Assembly (NCBI RefSeq): GCF_963921235.1
Contig: NC_086108.1
Location: 85,624,001 to 85,688,000, forward strand
Reading direction: 5' to 3'
From: Mobula hypostoma
Lineage: Eukaryota
Length of the DNA stretch: 64,000 bases
This document shows, one piece after another, positions 1,255-60,294 of the stretch. The position numbers and the translations under genes are program-made. A model generated the notes under the pieces. The model had not been told where the DNA came from. It saw nothing but the letters and a program-made list of their open reading frames with translations, and did no database searches. Every line of letters starts with the position of its first letter. Within the stretch, counting starts at the first letter, position 1.

Positions 1255-1540
1255 TTTATTTATTTATTATTTAGTGATACAGTGCAGAGTAGGCCCTTCT
1301 GGCCTTTTGAGCCTCACCGCCCAGCAATCCCCAACAAACCTGATTAACCCTAACCTAATCATGGAACAACCTAAAATGACCAATTAACCCACCTGAAATG
1401 CCTTTGGACTGAGGAAGGAAACAAGAGGACACGGAGAAAATGTAAAGAGACTACTTACTGAATTGTGCCAGAACTGAACTGCAAACTCCAGAACACCTCG
1501 AGCTGTAATAGCATCACACTAACCACTACGCTACCATACA
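1255..1540 (-). mobile_element. Degraded tRNA-derived SINE with CR1-like tail
   Basis: Head gtatggtagcgtagtggttagtg on the minus strand (A-box-like). Similar to 27755-27895. Confidence 0.55.
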
Positions 1541-3054
1541 CCCTAGTAAGATTCTTTCTACATAGGTGTGTTTCCTGCAAGCCAGTTCCCATTTGAGATG
1601 TGGTAATTGCAATATCTCTTAATTGGCAGCAGTCTTCACAGATAAGCTTATTCTTCTTAGTACACCATTAACAAATTTTTAAATATTTCACTCAAAATTG
1701 ATAGTTCAAATGAAGATTATCAGCTCAGCCCCATGGCAAATGACGTAGGCAAAGAACTTCCTTTTCTACTAGGTTAAGGTTGGTGAACTTACGGAATAGA
1801 ATCTTTCCCCTGAAGAGACGTCGTTTTGTACTTTGCAACTCTACCATCAATTACTTTTACCTCCACTTTGTATGCACTTTGAGACTTGGTGTAACATCTC
1901 ACTTCAGCTACAAATCAAATTCAGGTCATATTTGCCTTACAAAGAATCCTAGAATTTCTATTCCTGATGGTCTCATATAGTATTAACTTTTTATTTCCCT
2001 TTACTGTAATCTTGGTGCTTGCAACACGTTGTACCTTATTTTAAAGGTCAAATTATTTTTGAGCGGGAGATTCCATTGACCACCAATCTGTTTCTGAGAA
2101 CTGCTGTGAAAAGTTGCCCACATTTGCAATTCTCTAAATTGTTCCACTATTTGATGGAGGATATCAATCTTTCCTTCTTTCTATTGATGGAATTCAAGTG
2201 CTTGGTTTGATATGGGCCATTTTGATGAAGTTGGTTTACAATATTTTAAAGTCATCAGAATGGTCTGTTCCTTTGCCAAGATCTCCTTGATTTCTTATCA
2301 GATCTACTGTGTATTTCCTGGAGGCATTTTGCAAGATATAATTGATTTTCAAGGCATCTTTAATCTGCCTTGTAAATTTCTCCTTTTATTTGTATGCTCC
2401 ATTCTGAAACTCAAATCCTTGACAGTCACTTTGAGGCTGAACTTTATTTTAATTTTCCTGGCTTGCCTCTCAGTGGAAAATCTCTGTGCACATTCCCATT
2501 GGGATTATTGAGAGCACTGGATCAGCATTCTTGTTGTGCTGCCTATGAGTCCCCTGTTAAGTATGCTCAAGGTTGGTCAATGCCTGAAATGGGGATCACT
2601 TGGGAATAACAGGTGCAGTTGGCTTTCTGGCTGTGGAAGCAAAGGATCTGAGCAGCACAGTTCCATGAAATCACGTTACATATTGCAAGTAGTCACCCCT
2701 TTTCCCTCCATAATGTACAAGTAAGTTTGAGTTGAAAATGCAATGCTTGCTTGTAAACTATGGCTTCTTTTCATCTTACTTTAAATGATGACCTCCTCCT
2801 CCCTACAATGATTTGACAAGATGTATGCGTCTGTATTGACAACAGAGTTCTATACGTCAGAAGTAGAATAGAAAAAGCTGATTGTTCCCTGCTTACTTGC
2901 CTAATAAAATATACATTTTAAACCACTTTTTATAATGTTGTTTACACTGTAAATACATGCTGGCATTTGTGTATTTAGGTGCATCTTATTCCATATCTGT
3001 ACTTTAACCTCTAACTTTTTAATGTATTTTTTATTCTTAATAATTTTTGAAAGT

Positions 3055-3407
3055 TATAGAGTCATTGAAAATTACAGCACAGAAACAGGCTCTTTGGCCC
3101 ATCTGGTCTGTGGCAAACCATTTAAACTGCCTACTCTCTTGACCTGCACCGGGGCCATAGCCCTTTGTACTCCTACCATCCATGTACCTATCCAAACTTC
3201 TCTTAAACATTGAAATTGAGCTGGCATGCACCACTTGCACTGGCAGCTCATTCCACACTCTCACAACCCTCTGAGTGAAGAGGCTCCCCCTCATGTTCCC
3301 TTTACACTTTTTTGCTTTTCATCTTGAACCCACAACCTCCACTTGTAGTCCCACCCAACCTCAGTGGAAAAAGCCTGCTTGCATTACCTTGTCTATACCC
3401 CTCATAA
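3055..3407 (-). mobile_element. CR1 LINE 3' end
   Basis: ORF 3037-3294 (FTQRVVRVWNELP..FKRSLDRYM) is the CR1 ORF2 C-terminus. Confidence 0.85.
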
Positions 3408-3579
3408 TGTTGTTTTTGTTGCATGTTACGCCAACACACCACAGCAAATTCCTAATACATGCAAGTGCATATGGCGAATAAAGCTGATCTTTCATCCTTC
3501 GTCCTTGATATTTCGGAACTGTTAAGAATTTACTAACAATTGAAAATCTATAGAACAGCAAAACCTTTACATTGAGATA

Positions 3580-3970
3580 CACGCAGTTACCACTTCATTA
3601 GCTGCCCTTGTACACCCACTTGTTAATGCAGATATCTAATCAGCCAATCATATGGCAACAGGTCAATGCATAAAAACATGCGGGCATTGTCAAGAAGTTC
3701 AGTTATTCAGACCAAGCATTAGATTAGGGAAGGAAATATGCTTTAAGTGACTTTGTTGTTGGAATGATTGTGGGTGCCAGACAGAGTGGTTTGAGTATCT
3801 CAGAAACTGCTGCTCTCCTGGGATTTTAACATACAACAGTCTGTAAAGTTCACAGAGAATGGTGTGAAAAACAAAAAAAAAGCTTTCAGTGAGCAGCAGT
3901 TCTGTGGGTGAAAACACTTTGCTAATGATAAAGATCAGAACAGAATGGCCAGACTGACTCTAACAGGTAT
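3580..3970 (+). mobile_element. Non-autonomous Tc1 derivative (transposase N-terminal HTH remnant)
   Basis: Translates to LSDFVVGMIVGARQSGLSISETAALLGF, a Tc1 paired-like HTH. Same family as 62968-63500. Confidence 0.7.
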
Positions 3971-4479
3971 AACTGTAAAAGATTTTTTTTTATGTGTGGG
4001 AGGAGGGCTGATGCTCTTGTTTTTGTTTGCACGAACTTTTTTTTGTGCGGGGGGGGGAATGATGCTTTCCTTTGAATGGGTTCCATGGTTTTCTACGCTT
4101 TGTGGCTCTCTGTGGAGAAGACGAATCTCAAGGCTCTGTACTGCTACATACTTTGATTATAAATGTACTCTGAATCCTTTGAATAAATGGATTGGGAATA
4201 AACCTATTTACTCTAATAAGTTATAAGGTTATTAGCACTAGGAAAGGTAACATACAATTTGTTGGATTAGCTGGATTAGTGCTATACGAAATATGGTGTT
4301 TCTCTCCTTGCTAAACAGAGAATTCTTTTCTGGTGGCTTTGTTCACAATGAGTAACGTTACTATTAAATTGTAAGAGTCAAGACAGGGATGGCAAGATGC
4401 CAACCCGTATTTATGTAAATAAGCAGAGTTACTTTGTGAGATATATTTACAGCTGCTTTGTTGTTAAAGAATGCTCTAA

Positions 4480-5600
4480 CAATAAGTGGGAATTTATAGG
4501 CTGTGAGTTTGACATCAGTAGTTGGTAAGTTATTGGACAGTATTCTAAGGGACTAGATATATATGTAACACCCTTGGGAAAGATTTCACTGCCAACGTAA
4601 TGGTCTTTCTGTAGAAACATTTTTTGGGTTATGGTTAGAGATAATGAGTGTTTTTGACTGTGAACTGTCCAATGAAGGGAGTGTGTTTCTCGTGCCATGT
4701 GCCCGACACCGGTGTGTGAGCTGGGTCTTTGGTTTGGCAGGGAATGATGGGAGCAGACGCCGGAGAGAAGAGGTCATACGACTCGACCCGGAGCGGAGCC
4801 AAGATCTGACGAAAGCTGGGGAGCAGACGCCGGAGAGAAGAGGTCATACGACTCGACCCGGAGCGGAGCCAAGATCTGACGAAAGCTGGGGAGCTCGAAG
4901 GAGGATCGGCGAAGGGGAAACCGTGAGCTCCAACTTGTGCACATTAGACTGTTTCATTAAAATGGGCCCTTTTCGTTTTTTTTTTGCTTTTTCTTTACTA
5001 ACCCTTTAGTCAAATTAAGAATTATAAAGCTAAATCCTTTAATTTTATGCAGTGTACTGTCTGTTGTTTCATGGTACTGATTTGTAACAGGGTAACGAAT
5101 CACGTAGCTTCCACACAAATGGGGGGTTTCGGGGTGGGCTTACACCTCAATCTCACACATATGGCGGGGCCAGAGGTCGTCTTCCCTAGATTTACACATC
5201 TGACAGAATCAGAGTGTTTCATATAAGCAGTTGGATTGACTAGAGATAGCCAATATGGTTTTGTGCACAGTAGCTCATGTCTAACCAATCTTATAGAGTT
5301 TTTTGAGAGTTCAGAAAAATTGATGAAGACAAGCAGTGAATGTTGTCTACATGGACCTTAGCAAGGTCTCAGACAACGTCCCACATAGGAAGTTGGTCAA
5401 GAAAATTCAGTTGCTTCACATTCAGAATGACGTAGTAAGTTGGATTAGACATGGGCTTCGTGGGAGATACCAGAGAGTGGTAGTGGATAATGGCCTCTCA
5501 GACTGGAGGCCTGAAACCAGTGGTGTGTTGCAGGACTGATGCTGCGTCTGATGTTGTTTGTCATCTGTATCAATGATCTGGTTGATAATGTAGCATATTT
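4480..5600 (+). mobile_element. CR1 RT fragment interrupted by a solo LTR
   Basis: NYRPVSLTSVVGK-like motif before 4564. VVYMDLSKVSDNVPH and QRVVVD motifs in ORF 5336-5539. Confidence 0.75.
4564..5221 (+). mobile_element. Solo LTR (TG...CA, 4-bp TSD TATA)
   Basis: Starts TGTAAC and ends GTTTCA, flanked by TATA on both sides. The CR1 host rejoins across it. Homologous to 10046-11020. Confidence 0.8.
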
Positions 5601-14719: not shown

Positions 14720-16117
14720 TCATAGATTGAGGCCACTAGAATGCTGTGTTGAACAACTAGCGAGAGTATTCAAGGACACCTTCTATCTCTTACTGCTGCT
14801 GCAGTTGGAGATTCCCATCTGCATCAAAAGGGTGGTAGTCATTCCAGTGTCCAAGAAGAGCAGGGTGAGCTGCCTCAACAACTATCACCCAGTTGCACTC
14901 ACATCTGCTACGACAACGTGCTTTGAGAGGTTGGTCATGGCCACTCTACTCAGCCCTGGATCACCTGGAACAGCAGCAGTATCTGTGTCAGGTTTGCAGT
15001 TTATTGATTACAGCTCAGTGTTCAACACCAGCATACCCTCAGTACCAAGCAAAAAGCGACAAAAGCTGGGCTTTTTTACCTCCCTCTTCCATTGACTTCT
15101 TCATTGGAAGATCAGAGTCAGTGTGGAGTGGAAATAATATGTCCTCCTTTCTGACAATCAACACTGGTGCACCCCAAGGACGCATGCTTAGAACACTGCT
15201 TGTCTCTCTCTCTCTCTACACCGCTCTATGTGGTCGCATTGCTCAAACCCCATCTATTAATTTGCTGATGGCCCAGCTGCTGTTGGCCAAATCTCAGATG
15301 GGGTGAGGAAGTGTACAGGAGTAAGATCAGCTGGTTGAGTGGAATTGCAGCAACAACCTTGCAGACAATGTTATAAGATCAAGATCATGGACTTTAGGAA
15401 AGGGAAGCTGAGGGAACACACACCAGTTCTCATTGAGGGATCAGCAGTGGAAAGGGTGAGCAGTTTCAAGTTCCTGAGTGCCAACGTCTCTGATGATCTA
15501 TCCTGTGCCCAACATATAAGTGCAATTATAAAAAATGGCATGACAGTAGCTATATTTCATTAGGAGTTTGAGAATTGGTATGTCACCAAAGACTCTCTAA
15601 AATTTCTACAGACGTACTGTGGAGAGCATTCTAACTGGTTGCATCATTGTACGGTATGGAGGGGCCACTGCACAGGATTGGAAAAAGCTGCAGAAAGTTA
15701 TAAACTCAGTCAGCTCCATTATGGGCTCTAGCTTCCCAGGTCAAGGACACCTTCAAAAGGCGATGCCTCAGAAAGATGCCATCCATCATTAAGGACCCCT
15801 GTCACCCAGGTCATGCTATCTTCTTTTCATTACCATAGGGAGGAAGTACAGGAGCAAAAAAGGCATTCACTCAACAGTTGGTGGGAACAGTTTCGTCCCC
15901 TCCGCAATCATATTTCTGAACGAACAATAAATCAATGCATGAATACTATCCCACTACTTTTTGCTCTCTTTCTGCACTATTTATTTAACGTAATGTTAAG
16001 ATATATATATTTCTTACTGTAATTTATAGTTTTTTAATGCTTTGAACTGTACTGCTGCCGCTTAACAACAAATTTCACGACATATGCCAGAGATACTAAA
16101 TCTGATTCTGATTCTGA
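14720..16117 (+). mobile_element. Rex1/Babar LINE, 5'-truncated, with (CTGATT)n tail
   Basis: PVSKKSRVSCLNNYHPVALTS, FIDYSSVFNT, TGAPQG and VERVSSFKFL motifs; tail ctgattctgattctg. Confidence 0.85.
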
Positions 16118-16975
16118 TGCTGTTTGAAAGAGTTGTCACAGGATTGATGTGCTGAATGCCTCCTTCTCTACTGTGAATCTTTGGTTCTGTCCACAATAGG
16201 ACAGGGGGCAGGAGTGGCTGAGACTGTACTATTCAGTTAAAAAAAAAATTCTTAGAGGTTTCTAACATTTTCTTTGTGATTTAAATCAGGATCTTGTTTG
16301 CAGTTTGAATTTTAAAGATTCACACAAATGAAAGAAGCAAGATCTGAACCAGTCAAAACAAATGCATTAAATTTATTTAACTTGGGACGCCACTGATGCA
16401 ATTACATGGATTAATATATTAAATAATTCATTTATTCACACGTATTTCTTTATGAAATAGATTCCAAATCTATCAAGGATTCCTTTTGAGTGCTATGCTG
16501 CACCATATAGCCACATCAAGCATTCCAGTCAGCACAGCTTCAAACTGAGATGGAGCTGTATAGATACACTGGGCATTCAGTCAATGTAAAAGCGCTTAAT
16601 TAACATCAGTGGAAATACGAAAGTTTACTGTAGGTACTTCAGCAGTGCATGCTAATACAGCTTATCATTTTATCAGGTATATTCACAACTCCCAGCTTAT
16701 TTTCCATTAAAATAATTTGCTTCCTCTGTTCAAAATCATTTTAAAAGCAGAGAAGTTGTGTTAAGCTTTCATTGATTCTTGGTTGGTCTGCTGGGCATGG
16801 GGTTGGTCTCAATGTTCTCAAAGCATAACATAGAAAACATAGAAAACATACAGCACAATACAGGCTCTTCGGCCCACAAAGCTGTGCCGAACATGTCCCT
16901 ACCTTAGAACTACCTAGGCTTTACCAATAGCCCTCTATTTTTCCAAGCTCCATGTAGCCATCCAGGAGTCTCTTA

Positions 16976-17726: not shown

Positions 17727-17852
17727 ACTTTATTTTATTGTCGCCAAACAATTGATACTAGAGCGTACAATCATCACAGCGATATTTGATTCTGCACTTC
17801 GCGCTCCCTGGATTACAATTCGATAGTAAATATTAAAAATTTAATATTTAAC
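17727..17852 (-). mobile_element. Short Rex1 3' tail inserted in CR1
   Basis: Matches 46652-46731 (tttattgtcgccaaacaattgatactag...gctccctgg), the 3' end of the Rex1 at 46652-47985. Confidence 0.75.
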
Positions 17853-19140
17853 TTTTCCTAATCATATTATGCCTCTCCAAATGTTCATAAATCCTGCCTC
17901 TCAGGATCTTCTTCATCAACTTACCAACCACTGAAGTAAGACTCACTGGCCTATAATTTCCTGGGATATCCCTGCTCCCTTTCTTGAATAAGGGAACAAC
18001 ATCCGCAAACCCCTCAAATACTCTGGAACCTCTCCCGTCCTCATTGATGATGCAAAGATCATTGCCAGAGGCTCAGCAATCTCCTCCCTCGCTTCCCACA
18101 GTAGTCTGGGGTACGTCCTGTCCGGTCCCGGTGACTTATCCAACTTGATGCTTTCCAAAATCTCCAGCACATCCTCTTACTTAATATCAAGCTTTTCAGT
18201 CCACTGCAAGTCATCCCTACCATTGCCAAGATCCTTTTCTATGGTGAATACTGAAGCAAAGTATTCATTAAGTACCTCTGCTATTTCCTCCGGTTCCATA
18301 CACACTTTTCCATTGGTCCTATTCTCTCATGTCTTATCCTATTGCTCTTCACATACTTGTAGAATGTCTTGGGATTTTCCTTAATCCTGTCCACCAAGGC
18401 CTTCTCATGGTCCCTTCTGGCTCTCCTAATTTCATTCTTAAGCTCTTTCCTGCTAGCCTTATAATCTTCTAGGTTCATATCATTACCTAGTTTTTTGAAC
18501 CTTTCGTAAGCTCTTCTTTTCTTCTTGACTAGCTTTACAACAGCCTTTGTGCACCACGGATCTTGTACCCTACCATTCTTTCCATGTCTCATTGGAACCC
18601 CACGCAAATATCCCCTGAATATTTGCCACATTTCTTCGGTACGTTTCCCTGAGAACATCGGTTTCCAATTTATGCTTCCAAGTTCCGGCCTGATAGCCTT
18701 ATAGTTCCCCTTACTCCAATTAAACGTTTCCCTAATTTGTCTGTTTCTATCCCTCTCCAATGTTATGGTAAAGGAGATAGAATTGTGATCCCTATCTCCA
18801 AAATGCTCTCCCACTGAAAGACCTGACACTGACCTGGTGCATTTCCCAATACCAGATCAAGTACAGTCTCTCTTCTTGTAGTCTTATCTATATGTTGTGT
18901 CAAGAAACCTTCCTGAACACACGTAACAAACTCCACCCAATCTAAACCCCTCACTCTAGGAAGATGCCAATCAGTATTTGGGAAATTAAAATCTCCCACC
19001 ACAACAACCCTGTTATTATTACTCCTTTCCAGAGCTTTTGCCTGGGCTTGAAATCATTCTCAAGAGAGGCTAAGGTTCTAAACTCTAGAAGTATGAAGAC
19101 AAAGAGGGGAGATTTGATGTGAGACTTTAAAGTTAATAAA

Positions 19141-19391
19141 ATTATGCTGCTTTGTAACTTCAAAACATTAAAATAATTCAAAGGAAGACACAGGGAGTCC
19201 AGAAATATGGGTGTAACTCCTAGTTTACTTTAAGTGTGGCGCTCATGTAACATGTGGTAGCATGATGACATATGCAATTAACTTAATTATATCTATAAAA
19301 CTTGTAATTATTTGTTTAAACAAACAAGAATGCTTAATCAAACATATTTATAAGATTACTCAAATATAACTAAAATATTCAATACACAACA
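19141..19391 (-). repeat. 3' LTR of Gypsy element A
   Basis: Direct repeat of 22731-22939 joined to 24560-24604; adjacent PPT. Confidence 0.85.
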
Positions 19392-19689
19392 CTCCTCCCC
19401 GCTTTTAGAGTATATAAACTTCAACTCAACAGAGAATGCATCTCACCTATATACACCGTATGTTACATAATACAACTACGACTCACAGACATCCAAACTT
19501 TAAATTGTCCCATTCAGGCCTAAAGAATTAATTGCTGTGGAGGATTTCTTACTCTTGTGGGGTACTGTCTTTCCTGTTGGCTTTTGAGACTTCTGGAGGT
19601 GAAATCAATCTCAGGTTCTGGGGCCTCTGCTATGGTAATTGTAGGAGTCGACTCTGAGACTGTACTCTGGTTCTGACAGCTCTGGACAC

Positions 19690-21260
19690 CTTACTTCCCT
19701 TTTCTTTCTCTGGATCTACCTCAACCCCTTCCTTTTTCTTTATTAGGTTCCTTCCCTCTTTTACATACACTCATTTCATTCACATTCTTTCTCTCCAACT
19801 CTTCCCTTGCTTTTCTTCTTCTAGTTTGTGCATCTTGATTTCGGGAAGGTCCATTTAGTTCACTGGAGTATTCTCTTATTAATCTTTTTATTGCTCCCTT
19901 TACGATCTGATCTCTCCTCTTGGTTTCCTCATCCACAACATCATCTGACGAATCCTTAATTTTTGTATCTCCATTAACTTGTTTCTTTTTGGCCTTCCAT
20001 TCATCCATCTGGGCTTTGGTCTTTGCATTTAATTTTTACAAGCAGCATTTTTTCTTCCACTTGAAATTCATGAAATAACCTTAATGCACGTACAGTAGAT
20101 TCTGGTTCTTTATACTCACAAAAGCTGAATGTTTGCCTGAAGCTCCTTGAACTCTTTTCCAGCTTAAAACCAAGGCAAGCTTTCTTAGATACGTTGCCTC
20201 CAAAAACTGTGTGGTTAGGTATAGCTCAAATGCCATCTATGAGTTTGCCAATGATACAACCATTGCTGGTAGAATCTCAGATGGAGATGAGTGGGCGTAC
20301 AGGAGTGAGATATACCAGCTAGTTGAGTGGTGTCACAGCAACAACCTTGCACTCAATATAATTAAGGCAAAAGTGCTGATTGTAGACTTCAGGAAGAGTA
20401 AGACCAGGGAACATGAACCAATCCTCATAGAGGGATCAGATGTGCAGAGAGTGAGCAATTTCAAGTTCCTGATGTCAAAATCTCTGAGGATCTAACCTGG
20501 TCCCAACATGAATAAAGATCTAATCTGGTCCCAACAGCTATAAAGAAGACAAAACAGTGACTGTATTTCATTAGGAATTTGAAGAGATTTGGTTTGTCAC
20601 CTAAAACACTTGAAAACTTCTATAGATGTACTGTGGAGAGCATTCTGACAGGCCGTATTGTTGTCTGGTATGTGGTGGCTACTGCACAGGACCTAAAGAA
20701 GCTGCAGACAGTTGTAAAATTAGCCAGCTCCATCTTGGGTACTATCTTGTGTAGTATCCAAGACATTTTCAAGGAGCAGTAATTCAGAAAGGCAGCGTCC
20801 ATTATTAAGGACCCCCCATCATTCTGGCCATGCCCTCTTCTCACTGTTACCCTCAGAAAGGAGGTACAGAAACCTGAAGACACACACTCAGCGATTCAGG
20901 AACAGCTTCTTCCCCTCTGCCATCTGATTCGTAAATGGACATTGAATCCATAAACACTACCTCACTTTTTTTTACATTATTTCTGTTTTGCATTATTTTT
21001 AATCTAACCATTTAATATACATTTTTTACTTACTGTAATTGGTTTGCTTACTTTTTTTATTTCTATATTGTCATGTATTGCATTGTACTAAGTTAACAAA
21101 TTTCACGAGGCGTGCCGATAATAATATACACTGATTCTGATTCTGATTCTGTTGTAGGGGGACCACTGCTTTTGTCACTTTCTCATTTCCTCTGAGCAGC
21201 ATGGTCCTGCCTTGGTCCAATATGCTTTCCAACTGGAGGCATGGATGTTGACACCAACAC
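19690..21260 (-). pseudogene. RBM25: Processed (intron-less) RBM25 fragment: N-terminal region, RRM and start of the RE-rich region; split by Rex1 at 20207-21151
   Basis: Minus strand reads VLVSTSMPPVGKHIGPRQDH..SSGPPTT|VFGGNVSKKA..LVLSWKRVQGASGK..FCEYKEPESTVRALRLFHEFQVEEKMLLVK..AKTKAQMDEWKAKKK..DEETKRRDQIVKGAIKRLIREYSSELNGPS. This matches recalled human RBM25 (VGKHLGARKDH..GPTTTVFVGNISEKAS..LVLSWKRVQGASGKLQAFGFCEYKEPESTLRALRLLHDLQIGEKKLLVKVDAKTKAQLDEWKAKKK..DEETKRRDQMIKGAIEVLIREYSSELNAPS). Contains stops, frameshifts and deletions. Confidence 0.93.
20207..21151 (+). mobile_element. Rex1/Babar LINE 3' part inserted in the RBM25 retrocopy
   Basis: FANDTTI, LALNIIK, VSNFKFL and FYRCTVESILT motifs; (CTGATT)n tail. 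The RBM25 reading frame rejoins across it. Confidence 0.9.
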
Positions 21261-22719
21261 CTGTTTGTCCTTTATGTGTCAATGATTCATCGTGTTCAGC
21301 ATGAGACAGTTGTGGCATCATCCAGAAGCTTTCTTCACTCATTTAGAGTGGGTTTCATTGCAGGGATGTGGCATGCAAGTGTAGAATAGACCCCAAACAA
21401 GTTATACTTGTCTCAGCCAATCACACCCCCACAATGCTGATCCTTCTGATTTTACCACATACAAGCTTTATGAGGCCTGTTGGTGGTTGTACTTCACTGG
21501 CACAGTTACCATTCCCATAGGTGTTATCTTTTCTCCAGTATAAATTCTTTGTTGGCTATCTACAGGCTTCAGTTTAGTATCTTTGAAATATACCTCAAAT
21601 TCATATTGTGGAATGACTGAAACAGCTGAACCAGTGTCTAATCCCATTTTAATTAATTTGCCTTTCACGTCTGGTGTAAGCCATATTGCTTCTCTATTGC
21701 TAATTTTCACACTGTAGATCTCAAGGTTACACAATCCTGTGTCTTCTCAATATTATAATATTTTTCATCAACAGCATACAGGTCAGTGCTCTTGTTGAAA
21801 CTGCAACTTGACTTTTTAGCTTTTTCTCATCCCAGAGCAGTCCACTTATTTTTGTCTGCCTGGTATACTCTTTGTACGTGTCCTATGTTGTTGCATTTTC
21901 GGCAATATCCACCTTTAAACCTGCTTTGGTTGGTGTAAGTGAGCCCCTGTCACTCCAGTAAGACAATTTGTTCAGCAAGGCCAGTTTCTGTTTAGTGATG
22001 CAATTTTGTTTTCACTCACTCTCATTCCTGACTGCAACTCAATTGCATCTCTGTCTGCGGTTTCCAGTGAAACAGCGATTCCCACTGTTTCTATGAATGG
22101 AAGCTGTGCTTCAGTTAGCAGCTGTTTTTGAGTACTTTCTCTTAAGATTCCACGAGCTGAATGATCTCTCAGTGTATCATTAAACCCATTACTGAGCTGA
22201 CTCAGATAATCTCTTCAATTTCGCCACATATTCTGAAATAGATTTTTGATTCCGCTTATGAATGCGAAAGCACTGAAAACCAGTGACTTTGCTTCTAAGC
22301 GTTCCTGCATCAATAGCAGCAAAAGAAATTTCTGATGGTTTGCTGGAGCAGTCAAACTTTGAAGCAAACTGTATGCCTTTAAACCTAAAGAACTCAACAA
22401 AATTGGCTCTCGCTTCTCATTGGCTATTTCATTTGCTTCAATATACTGTTCCAATAGCTCAGCATACACGAGCCCATTACCCGTTGTGTAATAAAACTTG
22501 TCAACGTAGCCAGTCATTGCTGCTTTTTTTTGAAAATGATTATTATCGCCTGGTACTCCCTCTTTCTGAACCCTGAAATCTTCCATTTACAGCATTTTTT
22601 TAAAAACTCGATCCTGTCTTCCCTTCCAAAGCCTTGTGCTGCTCTATTTCAACGTTGCTCTTGCTGTGTTTTATATTATTTTGAACGTCTTGCCACAATA
22701 GGTTGATAGCCATGTCACA

Positions 22720-22729
22720 TTCGTCACCA
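22720..22729 (-). promoter_or_regulatory. Primer-binding site, tRNA-Ser(GCU)-like (degenerate)
   Basis: TGGTGACGAA immediately inside the 5' LTR; compare TGGCGACGAG at 60857-60866. Confidence 0.65.
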
Positions 22730-22939
22730 ATATTATGTTTTGTAACTTTGAAACATGAAACCAATTCAAAGGAGGAGCTGGGGAGTCCAGAAATATGGGT
22801 GTAACTTCAAGTTTACTTTAAGCAAGGTGTGCACGTAACATGTGGTAGTATGATGACGTATATGCAATTAATGTATTTGTACATATAATCTATAATTAAT
22901 TATTTAAACAAACAAGAATGCTGCATCAAACAAAATATA

Positions 22940-24559
22940 CAGTGCTTATAAAAAGTACTCACCCCCTTTGGAAGTCGTCATGTTTTATTGTTTTACAACA
23001 TTGAATCACAGTGGATTTAATTTGGCTTTTATTGGCACTCATCAACAGAAAAAGACTCTTTCATGTCAAAGTGAAAGTAGATCTCTGCAAAGAGATCTAA
23101 ATTAATTACAAATATAAAACATAGAATAACTGATTGCATAAGTATTCACTCCCTTCAAGTCGGTATTTAGTAAATGGAGCTTTGGCATCAATTACAGCCT
23201 TCAATCCGTGTGGATAGCCCTCCATCAGCTTTGCACATCTGGACACAGCAATTTTTGTCATTCTTCTTTACAAAACTGCTCAAGCTCTCTCAGATTGCAT
23301 GGGGATTGTGAGTGAACAGTCCTTTTCAAGTCCAGCCACAAATTCTCAATTGGACTGAGGTTTGAACTCTGACTTGGCCACTCCAGGACATTAATTTTGT
23401 TGCTTTTTAGCTATTCCTGTGTAGCTTTGGCTTTACGCTTGGGGTCATTGTCTTGCTGAAAAACAAATCTTCTTCAAGTTGCAGTTCTCTTGCAGATTGC
23501 ATCAGGTTTTCCTTTGGGATTTCCCTGTATTTTGCTGCATTCATCTCACTGTCTACCTTCACCAGCTTTCCAGGGCCTGCTATAATGAAGCATCCCAACA
23601 GCATGATGCATCCACCACCATCCTTCATGGTAGGGATGGTGTGTTTTTGAAGACAATCATAACGTTTAGTCTGATGACCAAAAAGCTCAATTTTGGTTTC
23701 CGCAGACCTTAGAACCTTCTTCCATTTGACTTCAGAGTTTCCCACATGCCTTCTGGTAAACTCTAGCTGAGATTTCATGTGAGATTTTTTTCAACAGTGG
23801 CTTTCTCTTTGCCACTCTTCCATAAAGCTGCGACTGGTGAAGTGTATGGGCAACAGTTGTCTTTCCCATCTCAGCCACTGAAGCTTGTAACTCCTCCAGA
23901 GTTGTCATCGGTCTCTTGGTGGCCTCCTTCACTCATCCCCTTCTGGCACAGTCACTCAGTTTTTGAGGATGGCCTGCTCAGGGCAGATTTACAGTTGTGC
24001 CATTTTCTTTCCATTTCTTGATGATTGACTTAACTGTACTCCAAGGGATATTCAGTGACTTGGAAATGTTCTTGTATCCATCTCCTGACTTGGGCTTTTC
24101 AATAACCTTTTTGTGGAGTTGCTTGGAGTATTCTTTTGTCTTCCTGGTGTAGTTTTAGCCAGGATACTGACTCACCAGCAGTTGGCCCTTTCAGATGCAG
24201 GTGTATTTTTACTACCATCAATTGAAAAAACCTTGAATGCTCACGGTGATCTCCATTTAATTAACTATGTGACTCCTAAGACCAATTGGCTGCACCAGTT
24301 ATGGTTTGGTATGTCATATTAAAGGGGGTGAATACTTATGCAATCAATTATTTTGTGCCTTTTGATATTTGTAATTAATTTAGATCACTCTGTAGACATT
24401 TGTTTTCACTTTGACTTGAATGTTTTTTTTTGGTGATCCATGTCAATAAAAAAGCAGAATTAAATTCACGATGATTCAATGTTGTAAAACAATAAAACTT
24501 GAAAACTTCCGGGGGGGGGGCGGGGGTGATGGTGCGGTGAATACTTTTTGTAGGAACTG
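22940..24559 (-). mobile_element. Full-length degraded Tc1 transposon (IR/DR type) inserted in the Gypsy 5' LTR
   Basis: TA|CAGTGC...AACTG|TA ends. ~215-240-bp TIRs with inner direct-repeat motif (ttgcataagtattcac). Transposase motifs WKKVLRSAETKIELFG and GGGCIMLLGCF in ORFs 23732-23932 and 23407-23778. Confidence 0.9.
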
Positions 24560-25261
24560 TATACAAGATTGCTCAACTATAACTAAAATATTAATTGCAC
24601 AACAAAAATAGTTGTGACTTTTCCACCTGTGAGGGTAGTAGGTGGAGTCGTAAAGGCAAGGTTAATTAGGAATTCTGAAGGATCTTTATGCTGAAGTTGG
24701 TGAGCATATGGTCAAGACAAATAGAACAGCTACAGAGAACCAATGAAAGAAAATGCATGGCAGAAAGAAATAGAAGGATGTGTTGATGGGGAAAGATTTA
24801 TTGAGGTGGAAGAAGAACATATGGAGCAATAAATACAAGCTCAACAAGGCTCAGCTGTGCCTCAAAGTTCCTTGTAACATTCAAAAGGCTATCAAAGGCA
24901 GTAGACAGGAAGAATAAAAAGTGCACACCTGATGGCAATTATTAGTAAGCTATTTCATGTTGATGAATTTTCTATTTCTCACAACCTTCAGCTGACTCTT
25001 AGCACCCCTTATTTTCCCTGTTATGTATATTCTCCCATGACGTGAAAGTAGCCAGTGAACCTATCAAGTAGAACATCTTTGGATGTGGGATTAAACTGGA
25101 GTCCATGGAAGCAGCCTTATGGTCACAGGGGAGAATAAACGAAATCTGCACAGACTTCGCTGTGGTCAGGATCAAACATAGTTTTCTACAGCTGTGAAGC
25201 TGCAGACTGGGCTGATGAACTACTATGCCATCAGTATGTTGACTTAATAGGTATTCTAGAT

Positions 25262-54485: not shown

Positions 54486-57067
54486 GGACGTCCATTTCAG
54501 GCTTTTTTTTTACACAGAGACTAATGGGTGTCTGGAATGCGCTGTCATGGGTGCTAAGGGAGGCAAATGGAAACAAATACAGCAGAAAACATATAAGAGG
54601 ATCTTGGATATGCCAATGAATATGCAGAGAATGAAGGGATGTGGACATTATTTAGATGGACATAGTTAGGTGTTTAATTACCATTTTAATCTGTTGAGCA
54701 CTATATTGTGTGTTCCTGTACAGTTCTATGCCTATGTCTCAAATAGTTAATGGGAAGATGCTCATAACTTGCAGCTGGTGCCAGAATCCATTACAACAAC
54801 TTGAGAAACCATGAAGAAACATAAACAAGTAGATATTTTGGTTTTGCATGATTTGGTGCTTCATGTGAATAAGTTTCCGGTTACCAGTACCCTCTGTTTC
54901 CCTCCCCCTGCTGTGTTTCTCTCATTCTGGTGGCCCACTCGCCCTTTCTCTTCCTCTCCCCTGCTCTCCATGATTTGCTCATCACGTCCATCTAGTTCTC
55001 CTTTATTGCACAGTCTACTGCTCTCTCTGTTGTGTCTGTACACAACTACATAGATATTAAATAAAAGCGCGCGCGTGGGAAATGGCTTTAACAAGTACTT
55101 TCACATTGCAGCGAGAGAGAGAGGGAGAAGAATATGCATGCATAGACAACAGTGCATGCACAGAAAACAGATCAATCCCTAGCGCTAAGGGAGGGGCTCA
55201 TTACTCTAAAAGAAATACATTACACTTCGTCTCTTTTAGATTAATGCAACATAAAACGGTATATGTACAAAATATGGGTTCATAAACCCATATTCCAAAT
55301 AAATGTTGTCCATGCCTAGCTTCACAGTTCTAAAAGTTCAGTCTTTTGGGTGGTGCTCTGTTTCTTTCAGGATAGCAACTCTGGACCTATGCAGTGGCTT
55401 CAGTTTTGGCAGATGTCTTTTCAACGGTAATGTTCTCATTGTACCTCTGGACCTGTGGCGTGGCATTAGGTTTGGTATGTGTCTTGTCTAAGACAACGTA
55501 CTCGGTTTCTGGGTGTCACATTGCTGTCGACAATATCATCACTGAAAGGTGGGTCCAGTGACTGTAATATGTCTGTCTTGTTGGACGCAATTGACTCGGA
55601 TGTGTTCTTTGGTTGAGTGTCCCGTATTTGGTCCAGATGACGTTTCCATGTCTGATCTCCAACATTCTCTATGTACATCAGTGATCCAGTTTTTGTATGT
55701 AGTTATCCTACCGGGTGTCCACTTGTCTTCTCGGTAATCATGCAGTAGGACTTCCTGTCCATTCTCGAAGCTCCTTGCTGCTTCATTTGGCAACTGGCAG
55801 AACTGTTTATTCTGCATTTCCCTCCATAGATCTGGTTTCAGGAGGTCTATGTGAGATCTCAGATTCCTGCTCATGAACAGCATTGTAGGTGTTTGATTTG
55901 TCGTCGCATGAACAGAGTTCCGATACACAAAAAGGGAAGTTGTCCACCTTGTGCTGTAGAGGAGTCTCCTCCTTGTCCAACACTTTAGTTGACTTCTTGA
56001 AGATTTGTGTAAACCTTTCAGCTAACCCATTTGTTGCTGGGTGGTGAGGGGATGACTTGAAACGTCTGATGACATTTTTCTTCATGAACAGTCGGGATTC
56101 TTCTGACGTGTATTATGGTCTGCTGCCACTCACAATTTGTTCTGGTAAGGTGTTTCTGGCAAAGGTAGTCATCAGGGCAGAAACAGTCTTCGCTGAGGTG
56201 GTTGACTTCATTGGTATAACCTCCAGCCACTTCAGATGAGCATCCACAGCAATCAGGAACATGGAGTCCATGAAAGGCCCAGCAAAGTCAATATGTACTC
56301 TTTGCCATGGTGAAGATGGCCACTCCCAAGGAAGTACAGGTGCCCGAGGGGGTGCATTTTGAACTCTTGGCATCCCAAACAGGTTTTGGCCAAGTCTTCA
56401 ATCTATCTATCTATTCCCAGCCACCATACGTAGCTCTGGGTAAGACTCTCCATCTTGACTGTACCCAGGTGTCCTTCATGCAGATTTTCTAACACTCTGG
56501 AGCTCAGCTTAGAGGGAACCACAACACGAGATCCACACATCAGCGATCCTTGACATGCCAACATTTGGTCTCGTCTCACTAAGAGCACTGGAAACAAGGT
56601 TTCCGTGAGCTGGCCATCCTTGCATGGTGATGTCATACACTTTTGACAATGTCGGGCCATTCCTTGATTCCCTTTGTATTTCAGAACTTGTTATTGTCAA
56701 CTGGTCCACCAATTCAGTGTGGAACACTTCAGCTGGGTCACAATATGAATACTTTTCTTCTTCAGTTGCCAATACTGGAAGACATGACAAGCTGCCAGCA
56801 TTGCTGTGTTGTTTGGTACCCTTGAACTCTATGTCATAAGAGTGGGCTCCTAGGAATAGTGCCCAACATTGTAACCGGAATTCCCTTCATGGAATTGAAA
56901 ATGGACACAAGGGGCTGGTGATCTGTTGTTAGTGTAAACCTTTGTCTATAAAGGTAGTGGTGGAATTTCTTTATTCCCCGTACTAGACTAAGGGCCTCTT
57001 GGTCGATTGGTGTATAGTTACGTTCTGCATTCATCAGTGATTGGATGTTCAGATCAATCTTTCATAA

Positions 57068-57850
57068 TAGACCACAAGACCACAGGACAAAGGAGCAGAA
57101 GTCGGCCATTCAGCCCATTGAGTCCGCTTTGCCATTTTATCATGAGCTGATCCATTCTCCCATTTAGTCCCACTTCCCCGCCTTCTCACCATTACCTTTG
57201 ATGCCTGGCTACTCAGATACCTATCAATCTCTGCCTTAAATACACCCAATGACTTGGCCTCCACTGCTGCCTATGGCAACAAATTCCATAGATTCACCAC
57301 CCTCTGACTAAAAAAATTTCTTCGCATTTCTGTTCTGAATGGCTGCCCTTCAATCCTTAAGTCATGCCCTCTCGTACTAGACTCCCCATCATGGGAAACA
57401 ACTTTGCCACATCCACTCTGTCCATGCCTTTCAACATTCGAAATGTTTCTATGAGGTCTCCCCTCATTCTTCTAAACTCCAAGGAATACAGTCCAAGAGC
57501 AGACAAACGTTCCTCATATGTTAACCCTCTCATCCCGGAATCATTCTAGTGAATCTCTGTACCCTCTCCAACGTCAGCACATCCTTTCTTAAATAAGGAG
57601 ACCAAAACTGCCCAAAGTACTCCAAGTGAGGTCTCACCAGTGCCTTATAGAGCCTCAACATCACATCCCTGCTCCTATACTCTATTCCTCTAGAAATGAA
57701 TGCCAACATTGCATTTGCCTTCTTCACTACTGACTCAACCTGGAGGTTAACTTTAAGGGTATCCTGTACGAGGACTCCCAAGTCCCGTTGCATCTCAGAA
57801 CTTTGAATTCTTTCCCCATTTAAATAATAGTCTGCCCATTTATTTTTTCA
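57068..57850 (-). mobile_element. Young CR1 3' part inserted in the Gypsy B RT/RNase H region
   Basis: ORF 57530-57793 (QRDLGV..RPHLEY..FWSPYLRKD); (TCTTGTGG) tail. Confidence 0.88.
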
Positions 57851-60294
57851 AATAATATAATAATAATAATAATATGTGACTAAACAACTCCAATGCCATA
57901 AGGGGATGCATTGCGTGCCAATCTGATGGGCAGGGATGAGTCAACATGGGTGAGCAGTTCATTGGACTCATTGTTAGTCTCTTTGTTTCCTTGAATGTTC
58001 TTTCACATCTTTCTGACCATTCCCACTTTGCTCCTGTCTATAACAGTGCGTTCAATGGATGCAACACTATAGCAATGTTTGGGAGAAACCGGTGGTCGTA
58101 TTTACAAGGTTCAAGTATGACTTGAGTTGTGACACATTTTCCAATTTGGGTGCCTGTAGCACTGCTTCAGTCTTCTCTTGTGACTTATGTAAGCCATGCT
58201 TGTCAATGACATGTCCACAATATGAGATTTAATTTTTGAAAAACTCACGTTTCTCTCTGTGCACAGACCATACTGAGTTAGCCTGGTAAGCTCTACTGAG
58301 GTTCTGGAGGTGCTCTTCATCATTTTTGCCAGTCACAATGTTCTCATCAAGGTAACATTGTGTTCCTGGGATATCTTGGCGTGCTTGGTCCATTGCTCTT
58401 TGCCAAATTGCTAGGGCTGATGCGACACCAAAGACGAGACGATTTTGCTGGAACAGTCCCTTGTGAGTAGTGATCGTGTGGAACTTCCTGCTTGGCTGCT
58501 CATTCTCCATTTGCAGATAGGCTTGTGACAAGTCAATCATTGAAAACCTCTCCTGCCTACCAAAGACGCAAAATTATCTTCTAATCAGGGCAGGGGATAC
58601 TGCAAAATACGCAGAACTGTGTTGCTGCTTACCTTGAAATCCCCACATGCGCAAAAGGCTCTGGCCTTTCCTTTCTTGATCACCGGGACAATGGGCGTGA
58701 CCCAATCATTCCACTCAGCCTTGGAGAGCATTCCAGATCCCTCCAAACTCTGCAGTTCAATATTCACTTTGGGACGTAGTGCATAAGGCACAAGACACGC
58801 TTTATGGAATCTTGGTGTTGCTGTTTCATTCAGTTGAATTTTGACCTTCATGCCTTCGAGTTCACCAATCCCCTGGTCAAACACCTTCTCATTAACATTA
58901 AGTAGCTGTTCCATTCTCTGGTTAGTGCTACCATTTGAGCTGTCATTGCCTGTTGATGTCACACTGAGAGCTTTGACTGAGTCCCAGTCTAGTTGAATTT
59001 TTCTCAACCATTTACGTCTGAAAAGTGCAGGCCCTCCGCTTTTCAATTCATAAAGCTCAAACTGTTGTGTTTGGCCTCCATACTTTCAGTTTCCCTTTGG
59101 GAGATATTTATTCACCTGTGTAAGTCTTTAGCATCACTGAGGGCTTCTCTAATGGTATTTTAGAAAACAGTCTGTTGTAGTCAGCCTCTGGAATTATAGA
59201 CAAAGCTGACCCTATATCCAGGTCCATTTTCAGTTTTACACCAGACACATCTATTGTGATCTATATTATATTGCAATCTGCTTCAGTTATAATACGCTGT
59301 TTGAAGCATGACAGTTCACCTTTGTCAAACTCTATGCTGTCTGATTCTGTTCCGCATTCAGTAACTCTATGCATTTGCTTAGTTTTGTGTTTGAGACTTT
59401 TCACTCAGTTGTGCTTTTTGTCTGCCTTGCACAATCTCTCTATGTACCCTTATCTGCAACACTTTCTGCAGACTTCTTTTTTGAACCAACAGTTATTTGC
59501 ATCGTGGGAGGGTTTGCAACATCGTTAACATCTTTGGTTTTTGCACCATTCAGGGGCATTTTGTGCATTTCACATTCTGACCTCCTTTTCTCTAGTTCTG
59601 CTGCAACCTTTGCTGCAGTTTCTAACGATATTGCAATGGCCAATGCCCGTTCTAAGGTTAGGTCCCTTTCAGACGATAGCAACTTTTGAGTGCTTTGACT
59701 ATGCCTGCCACGTACAAATTTGTCCCTTATTGCATCAGAAATGCACCTCTAAAGTCACAGTACTGGGGAAGTTTGCACAGTTCTGCAATGTATTCGTAAA
59801 TGCTTTTATCTTTTGACTGGTTCCCTTTGTAAAATCTAAATCTCTCGGCTATCACCAGTGACGTAGGGCTCAAGTGACTTTGTAAAATTATAACATTTTC
59901 ATTGAGCATCTTGCTTGCTGGTTTTTCAGGTGTGACTAGATTAAATAAGAGACTATATGTCCTTGCACCCATTAAGCCAAGAAGTGTAGGGACATTATTT
60001 TGCTCCTCCACGTTGTTTGTGTTACAATACGGTTCCACTCTCTTGATATATGACACTCAGCGCTGCCAAATTCATCAACTTTCTTGACTGAAGCCATTGC
60101 CATGTTTTTTTCACTTTAAATTCAGTGCAACTTCCACTGTTACTATGTACTGTTCTCATGTGTTTGATAACATCTATGATGGCCTTCTCATGCTGTTTAA
60201 CTCTTGCTGTTTTGTCCTGCAAGAGAGGGAATTTGTTGGATGCGTGCGGAATTTGTTGAATGCCTACAAGATGGCTTTTTAGAGCAGCTTGTGC

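Follow-up and report, generated by a model that had tools for sequence, protein, structure and literature searches.

The window analyzed here, a stretch of 64,000 nucleotides (nt) from Mobula hypostoma (contig NC_086108.1, positions 85,624,001 to 85,688,000 of the forward strand), carries on its minus strand a decayed Gypsy retrotransposon in which a spliced piece of the host gene RBM25 takes the place of the core of pol. We read this element, with a probability of roughly 90%, as a dead copy of a non-autonomous Gypsy family that was born by a double template switch onto spliced RBM25 mRNA and was then amplified. An earlier note on this DNA had proposed capture by template switching of an element with long terminal repeats (LTRs), and this proposal was upheld by the exon junctions, by microhomology on both sides of the insert, and by the lack of any 3'-anchored RBM25 retrocopy in the genome. 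The capture did not take place at the window locus itself: its breakpoints are common to copies genome-wide, and it occurred once, in an ancestor.

Read along the minus strand, the parts follow one another as LTR, primer-binding site (PBS), gag, zinc-knuckle region, protease (PR), RBM25, integrase tail, polypurine tract (PPT), and LTR, and a 5-bp target-site duplication (TSD) flanks the element on both sides. The features are as follows (tblastn matches in amino acids [aa]; RT, reverse transcriptase; RRM, RNA recognition motif; LINE, long interspersed element).
24605..24609, minus strand: 5' TSD, ATTTT
24560..24604, minus strand: first part of the 5' LTR, from its TG start up to the TA site of a Tc1 element; ~84-86% like the start of the 3' LTR
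22940..24559, minus strand: Tc1 DNA transposon, a later insertion in the 5' LTR, with duplicated TA, long inverted repeats, and a transposase remnant (HTH_Tnp_Tc3_2, E = 7.7e-10)
22731..22939, minus strand: second part of the 5' LTR, 82% like the 3' LTR
22721..22729, minus strand: putative PBS position, TGG-initiated, immediately after the LTR
21845..22517, minus strand: decayed, frameshifted gag and zinc-knuckle region (tblastn: P0029 from aa 1 at 22517; P0030 aa 6-181 and 203-236)
21318..21746, minus strand: aspartic protease with the linker between PR and RT, cut off by the 5' breakpoint (P0030 aa 261-378); the DNA match to the pol-bearing parents stops here
21308..21317, minus strand: 5' breakpoint microhomology between the end of RBM25 exon "E2" and Gypsy pol, in one common reading frame
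21261..21307, minus strand: 48-nt RBM25 cassette exon "A", with a 1-nt gap in the window copy (host C1:99832586-99832633)
21149..21260, minus strand: 5' part of RBM25 exon "B", 85% identical to the host exon
20211..21148, plus strand: 5'-truncated Rex1-type LINE, a later insertion in exon B, with duplicated ACAG and a short-repeat tail
19811..20210, minus strand: RBM25 exons B (3' part, with a private deletion of ~36 nt), C, D, and E, spliced, covering the RRM and the following helical region; 86-91% identical to the host exons, junctions abutting
19689..19810, minus strand: mosaic of RBM25 exon G pieces, the G/H junction, and the start of exon H, with exon F skipped and the 3' microhomology at its end
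19407..19688, minus strand: integrase C-terminal tail and 3' untranslated region; the same DNA comes after the integrase in pol-bearing relatives
19392..19406, minus strand: PPT
19143..19391, minus strand: 3' LTR
19138..19142, minus strand: 3' TSD, ATTTT

This order of parts is the one given in the earlier note, and the absence of RT, RNase H, and the integrase core was likewise borne out. No match to these domains was found between PR and the 3' LTR, and the full Gag-Pol protein P0030 aligned in tblastn solely via aa 6 to 378. The decayed RRM, gag, and PR frames of the window element all went unrecognized by Pfam, and the window holds no tRNA gene against which the PBS could be matched. The limits of the captured piece needed revision. 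RBM25 sequence does lie in two pieces split by Rex1, as had been described; it starts at ~21317 if the microhomology is counted, or at 21307 with exon A, ~55 nt before the start previously given as 21260. The end of the protease, ..DDATTV, had been read as pure Gypsy, but its TV is already shared or RBM25 sequence, and exon A had been taken for part of the Gypsy. Rex1 is present as claimed and spans 20211-21148 rather than 20207-21151, so that the 5' RBM25 piece reaches 21149. Altogether, the RBM25-derived DNA comes to ~690 nt instead of ~630 nt, the last ~120 nt being a mosaic left by internal deletions.

The identity of the captured piece was confirmed by protein comparison. Its best match is a shark RBM25-like protein (82%), and all 27 protein matches are named RBM25, RRM-containing, or unnamed, none being named as another gene. 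A search of the PDB returned weak RRM matches only (best E = 0.052). A C-terminal protein query placed the RBM25 host gene at one locus, C1 at ~99.79-99.84 Mb (four of four matches), and at the sensitivity of this query no 3'-anchored RBM25 processed pseudogene was found in the genome, the PWI region matching the host gene alone. A search by PWI family had been tried as a route to the host gene and found just two different PWI genes, which we take to be of SRRM1 and PRPF3 type. Host exons were mapped on 100 kb of C1 with AG/GT ends. The window pieces are 78% (A), 85% and 88% (B), 91% (C), 87% (D), 89% (E), and 73% (part of G) identical to them and abut where the host gene has introns of 2-5 kb. 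The spliced origin suspected earlier holds in every testable copy of the family: among 30 copies examined, five exon junctions were crossed within 3 nt and without an intron in 20/20, 22/22, 28/28, 28/28, and 29/29 testable cases, and mean identity to the host mRNA in this set was 86%.

Exon A is a 48-nt in-frame cassette in the host gene (minus strand of C1). Its last 14 codons recur identically in the shark model P0002, and the exon is lacking in both ray-finned proteins compared (P0007/P0008). It is in place in 21 of the 30 distinct copies and truncated or interrupted in the other nine. Exon A is a conserved alternative exon of RBM25 that has been preserved in the retrocopies. The idea that it is a "poison exon" was ruled out, as it is 48 nt long, in frame, and free of stops. 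An apparently solitary LTR of the RBM25-carrying Gypsy family lies on C1 at ~99.8767 Mb (L035; 73648-73890 of the host stretch), ~36 kb upstream of the RBM25 exon beginning MSFPP.

Relatives that retain pol allowed the breakpoints to be mapped. A query with the RT region gave 17,408 candidates, and 30 RT-bearing loci were fetched, 18 of which have DNA in common with the gag, PR, and linker of the window element, the match ending at the breakpoint. Sixteen such parents were extended, and both anchors were present in seven. The alignment to pol-bearing family members that the earlier note had called for gave a replaced interval of 2,315-2,524 nt in four parents, the others carrying deletions or inserts. 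The interval spans RVT_1, RNase H, H2C2, and rve, i.e., RT, RNase H, and the integrase core; P0030 has the Pfam domains gag, protease, RVT_1, RNase H, H2C2, and rve. Relative to the parents, ~2.4 kb of pol has gone out and ~1.07 kb of RBM25 mRNA has come in. At the 5' breakpoint, pol (D-A-T/A-V-F) and the E2/A junction of the mRNA (P-A-T-T-V-S) have 7-9 nt in common in 7 of 12 scorable parents, and at the 3' breakpoint the integrase tail and exon H have 7-10 nt in common in 6 of 7 parents, both microhomologies lying in register with the junctions of the chimera. The insert ends show neither poly(A) nor a TSD around the RBM25 piece.

The order PR-RT-RNase H-integrase, together with LTRs, PBS position, PPT, and 5-bp TSD, places the parent family within Ty3/Gypsy; we presume it to be of the "Mag type." Two parents with internal pol deletions and no RBM25 (L064 and L090) represent other non-autonomous derivatives of this family. 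At two further loci (L156 and L157, on C50), gag and PR match P0030 up to aa 392, near the cut of the RBM25 family (~aa 408). Since these loci have no DNA in common with the RBM25 family, at least two different Gypsy families appear to have been cut just after the protease.

The non-autonomous family that the earlier note had suspected is real and large. A 17-mer over the E-to-G deletion and a 19-mer over the Pol/RBM25 junction had 285 and 250 exact matches genome-wide, and control motifs had none. The 3' piece of the window element used as a query gave 3,668 first-look candidates. Of these, 40 were scored, and in the 39 that are not the window locus the larger part of the query is matched at 79-84% identity. 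The RRM protein query gave 3,750 candidates (150 of them scored), a figure that is not a copy number. From nine coincidences among 85 and 76 matches on four fully listed contigs, the copy number is estimated at ~2,200-2,400 (range, 1,300-5,000). At least 250 nt of exons A to E are present in 24 of 30 motif-selected loci. TSDs differ from copy to copy, with at most one mismatch in five of eight full-length copies (four found by script, one by eye). With many dispersed copies of common structure and separate TSDs, and with a partner that is autonomous and carries the same LTRs, this is a non-autonomous LTR family, of which the window element is one dead descendant.

Comparison of the copies also points to the form of the founder. 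One of them, L143, tracks the mRNA from position 40 to 1,112, breakpoint to breakpoint, apart from a 30-nt gap in the RE repeat and a few minor gaps; the founder therefore captured ~1.07 kb of RBM25 mRNA. Subfamilies can be told apart by several different deletions within the purine-rich RE region. The window copy belongs to the short form, which lacks exon F: it skips from E to G, with two further jumps inside G and one in H. A query with host exon F gave 357 candidates; the 39 non-host matches scored are 90-96% alike, all nine that were fetched sit within this Gypsy element, and the family breakpoints are present in those that extend to the ends. Among the exon-F-bearing copies, distinct RE-region deletion subfamilies can be seen (L137 and L142; L138 and L141; L139). 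Host-type alleles at diagnostic sites are commoner in the long forms, and the tree of copies is star-like (internal length, 0.38; terminal, 6.93).

The family is old. For LTR divergence, the measure of age suggested in the earlier note, Kimura two-parameter distances between the two LTRs had a mean of 0.25 (range, 0.16-0.36) in the 14 of 20 copies with both LTRs and came to 0.16-0.20 in the window copy, whose LTRs are 17-20% diverged. Divergence is 18% among copies and 14% between copies and host (62 of 68 copies; six with less than 250 aligned nt were left out). Three other organisms (B, C, and F) carry the family, with ~100 contigs each over the RBM25 part, whose summed depths were left out of the copy-number estimate. 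In organisms B and F, one contig each extends over the Tc1 end and the start of the LTR and on into flanking DNA of low depth, differing from the window at 8/307 and 32/333 letters. Because these contigs cross Tc1, LTR, and flank, the window insertion and its Tc1 predate the splits from B and F.

We propose the following course of events. A particle of a pol-bearing Gypsy family would first have co-packaged a spliced RBM25 mRNA containing the 48-nt cassette exon. Reverse transcriptase may then have jumped to the mRNA and back at the microhomologies of 7-10 nt found at the breakpoints, exchanging RT, RNase H, and the integrase core for RBM25. Retaining LTRs, PBS, PPT, gag, and PR, the chimera could have been mobilized with enzymes supplied by relatives that bear pol, and its success is best put down to a shorter, cis-complete template. 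It multiplied to the ~2,000+ dispersed copies seen today, and repeated loss of purine-rich parts gave rise to the subfamilies, the window copy belonging to the short one. This copy integrated with its 5-bp TSD, received Tc1 and Rex1, and decayed.

Several points weigh against this reading. Co-packaging, switching, and trans-mobilization are unobservable and hence inferred. For random pairs, P is 7e-4 for at least 7 shared nt and 6e-5 for 9 nt, but because the best among 16-20 offsets was taken for every parent, a fair chance per junction is ~1% for 7 nt and ~0.1% for 9 nt; moreover, fewer than 7 nt were shared in 5 of 12 (5') and 1 of 7 (3') decayed parents. The copy number is an estimate resting on nine overlaps, the tree has no supported clade of three or more copies, so that the order "long before short" is drawn from structure and from the pattern of alleles, and three of the eight full-length copies have no clear TSD. 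Even so, other origins of the family fare considerably worse. LINEs (Rex1, CR1-like) have been active near the locus and pol-deleted parents such as L064 and L090 exist, so a LINE-made RBM25 retrocopy might have landed in a Gypsy that had lost, or later lost, its pol, with the composite spreading afterwards. We consider this very unlikely: the insert is an internal piece of the mRNA without the 3' anchoring, poly(A), and TSD of a LINE-made processed pseudogene, the 3' end of RBM25 (PWI region) matches the host gene alone, and both insert ends sit at microhomologies in register with pol. Least probable of all is that DNA-level recombination or segmental duplication of one chimeric locus made the copies. 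A few do lie close together (two on C15, two on C63), but copies occur on dozens of contigs and are 18% diverged from each other, similarity stops at the LTRs with copy-specific TSDs, and the loose ends at the LTR boundary vary among hundreds of contigs.

A further alternative concerns the cause of the burst rather than the origin of the family, namely that the captured piece was useful, either as an in-frame Gag-PR-RBM25(RRM) fusion or as host-like RNA that aided packaging, export, or escape from silencing. In its favor, the 5' junction keeps the Pol frame (Gag-PR) into RBM25 in 40 of 44 copies, two natural copies (L150 and L152) are open from the PR C terminus into the RRM, the deletion subfamilies seen retain exons A to E but have lost the RE-rich part, and the gag of the chimera shows a faint third-position excess (ratio, 1.16; confidence interval [CI], 1.01-1.34), parents showing none (0.90). 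Against it, pairwise differences between copies gave a ratio of third to first and second codon positions of 0.92 (CI, 0.83-1.02) for the RBM25 part and 0.98 (CI, 0.83-1.14) for the RRM, changes at the subfamily level are mostly non-synonymous, and none of 62 copies has an open frame over exons A to E. An in-frame junction has a prior of 1 in 3, and at the 3' junction the integrase tail lies in a different frame. The 12 best RRM copies are rich in non-synonymous changes outside the selected stretch, the best RRM copy among the 150 scored is just 93% identical, and no annotated Pol-RBM25 fusion protein was found among 108 matches (maximum coverage, 64%; lengths, 129-413). Of the near-fixed differences to the host gene, 19 are synonymous and 1 is non-synonymous, the shark protein having the copies' residue at the latter; such a 19:1 bias is expected from drift of a constrained host gene. 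Two tests were discarded: a comparison of singleton and shared variants by non-synonymous and synonymous class (P = 1e-4 for 10-70%), in which transitions that recur, together with CpG sites of the founder, raise the number of synonymous variants that are shared, and a codon-position test with a protein-identity filter, which is biased.

The RBM25 frame thus evolved neutrally, showing neither purifying selection nor the marks of a functional retrogene, and the comparison drawn in the earlier note with retroviruses that transduce a working host gene is not supported. The piece is most likely a passenger, and a useful cargo is unlikely, although an early or RNA-level role may have existed, as a short burst leaves little signal. 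It is similarly doubtful, in more specific terms, that a founder Gag-PR-RBM25 fusion was trimmed by its own protease to a particle-borne RRM protein, or that host-identical RNA shielded the element from small-RNA silencing or aided export. If a helpful cargo did operate, it would account for the lead of this single capture over all LTR retrocopies described so far, which is about three orders of magnitude; the thousands of copies might in turn be a source of antisense small RNAs directed at the mRNA of an essential splicing factor.

The window copy itself was damaged by later insertions. All cis-signals had been thought to remain; however, the 1.6-kb Tc1 splits the 5' LTR in two and so damages them. 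Rex1 is missing at the corresponding place in other copies of the family. A second Rex1-type fragment lies at 15238-16119 (plus strand) and is ~77% like the one inside the RBM25 piece, and a CR1-like LINE remnant with an endonuclease domain (17850-19050, minus strand) adjoins the 3' LTR. A second decayed Gypsy at 55600-60100 (minus strand), whose gag, RT, RNase H, and integrase match P0030, has no DNA similarity to the RBM25 family.

The mechanism proposed here has already been published, and it is the scale of amplification that is exceptional. K02A2.6-like Gypsy elements (P0030, P0035) have the gag-PR-RT-RNase H-integrase order seen in the parents, TG..CA LTRs of ~250 nt, and a 5-bp TSD, and the chimera differs from them in lacking RT, RNase H, and the integrase core. 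According to the part of Tan et al. 2016 (PMC5131818) that we drew on, a spliced partial mRNA in LTR-mediated retrocopies replaces part of the element's open reading frame, with a median microsimilarity of 6 bp at the switch points; the insert lacks poly(A) and TSD, and both LTRs are kept, so that the product can be re-mobilized as a non-autonomous element. The RBM25 family shows all of these, namely an intron-less mRNA segment, reading-frame replacement, switch-point microsimilarity, and an insert without poly(A) or TSD. The cases in that part of the study are young and at few sites (nine fly retrocopies at 18 sites; a handful of cases in each vertebrate genome), and its species list does not include cartilaginous fishes. 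In contrast, the RBM25 family goes back to one capture, has ~2,000+ copies and deletion subfamilies, and is old and neutral. Helitron and Pack-TIR/Pack-MULE capture (PMC4224331, PMC8277862), as far as covered there, likewise multiplies host gene fragments by transposons, but at the DNA level and by DNA transposons, whereas the RBM25 template was spliced mRNA in an LTR element.

No description of an RBM25 Gypsy family was found in the literature searched, outside of which lay the tables of Tan et al. 2016 and VGP Supplementary Table 13, which could list RBM25 retrocopies. In the portion of the VGP preprint available, non-mammalian retrocopy counts are low and a repeat-overlap filter was used, and RBM25 is not in the main text. 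Because counts of this type filter on repeat overlap, captured families may be missed, or they may be misfiled as pseudogenes. With parent, donor, founder form, and deletion derivatives all in one genome, the family is an unusually complete record of a double template switch; it is also a fossil of an old RBM25 splice isoform, and its shared insertions are usable as phylogenetic markers. Another known counterpart is maize Bs1 (PMC5131818, PMC13317346), which, in the accounts consulted, is an LTR element with transduced spliced host exons, switch points common to all copies, and a capture partly in frame, and which has three donor genes and a translated chimeric protein; the RBM25 family has one donor and shows no protein constraint. 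A single LTR-mediated capture can thus grow into a major vertebrate repeat family, with ~2,000+ partial retrocopies of one gene compared to the 1-5 copies of Bs1.

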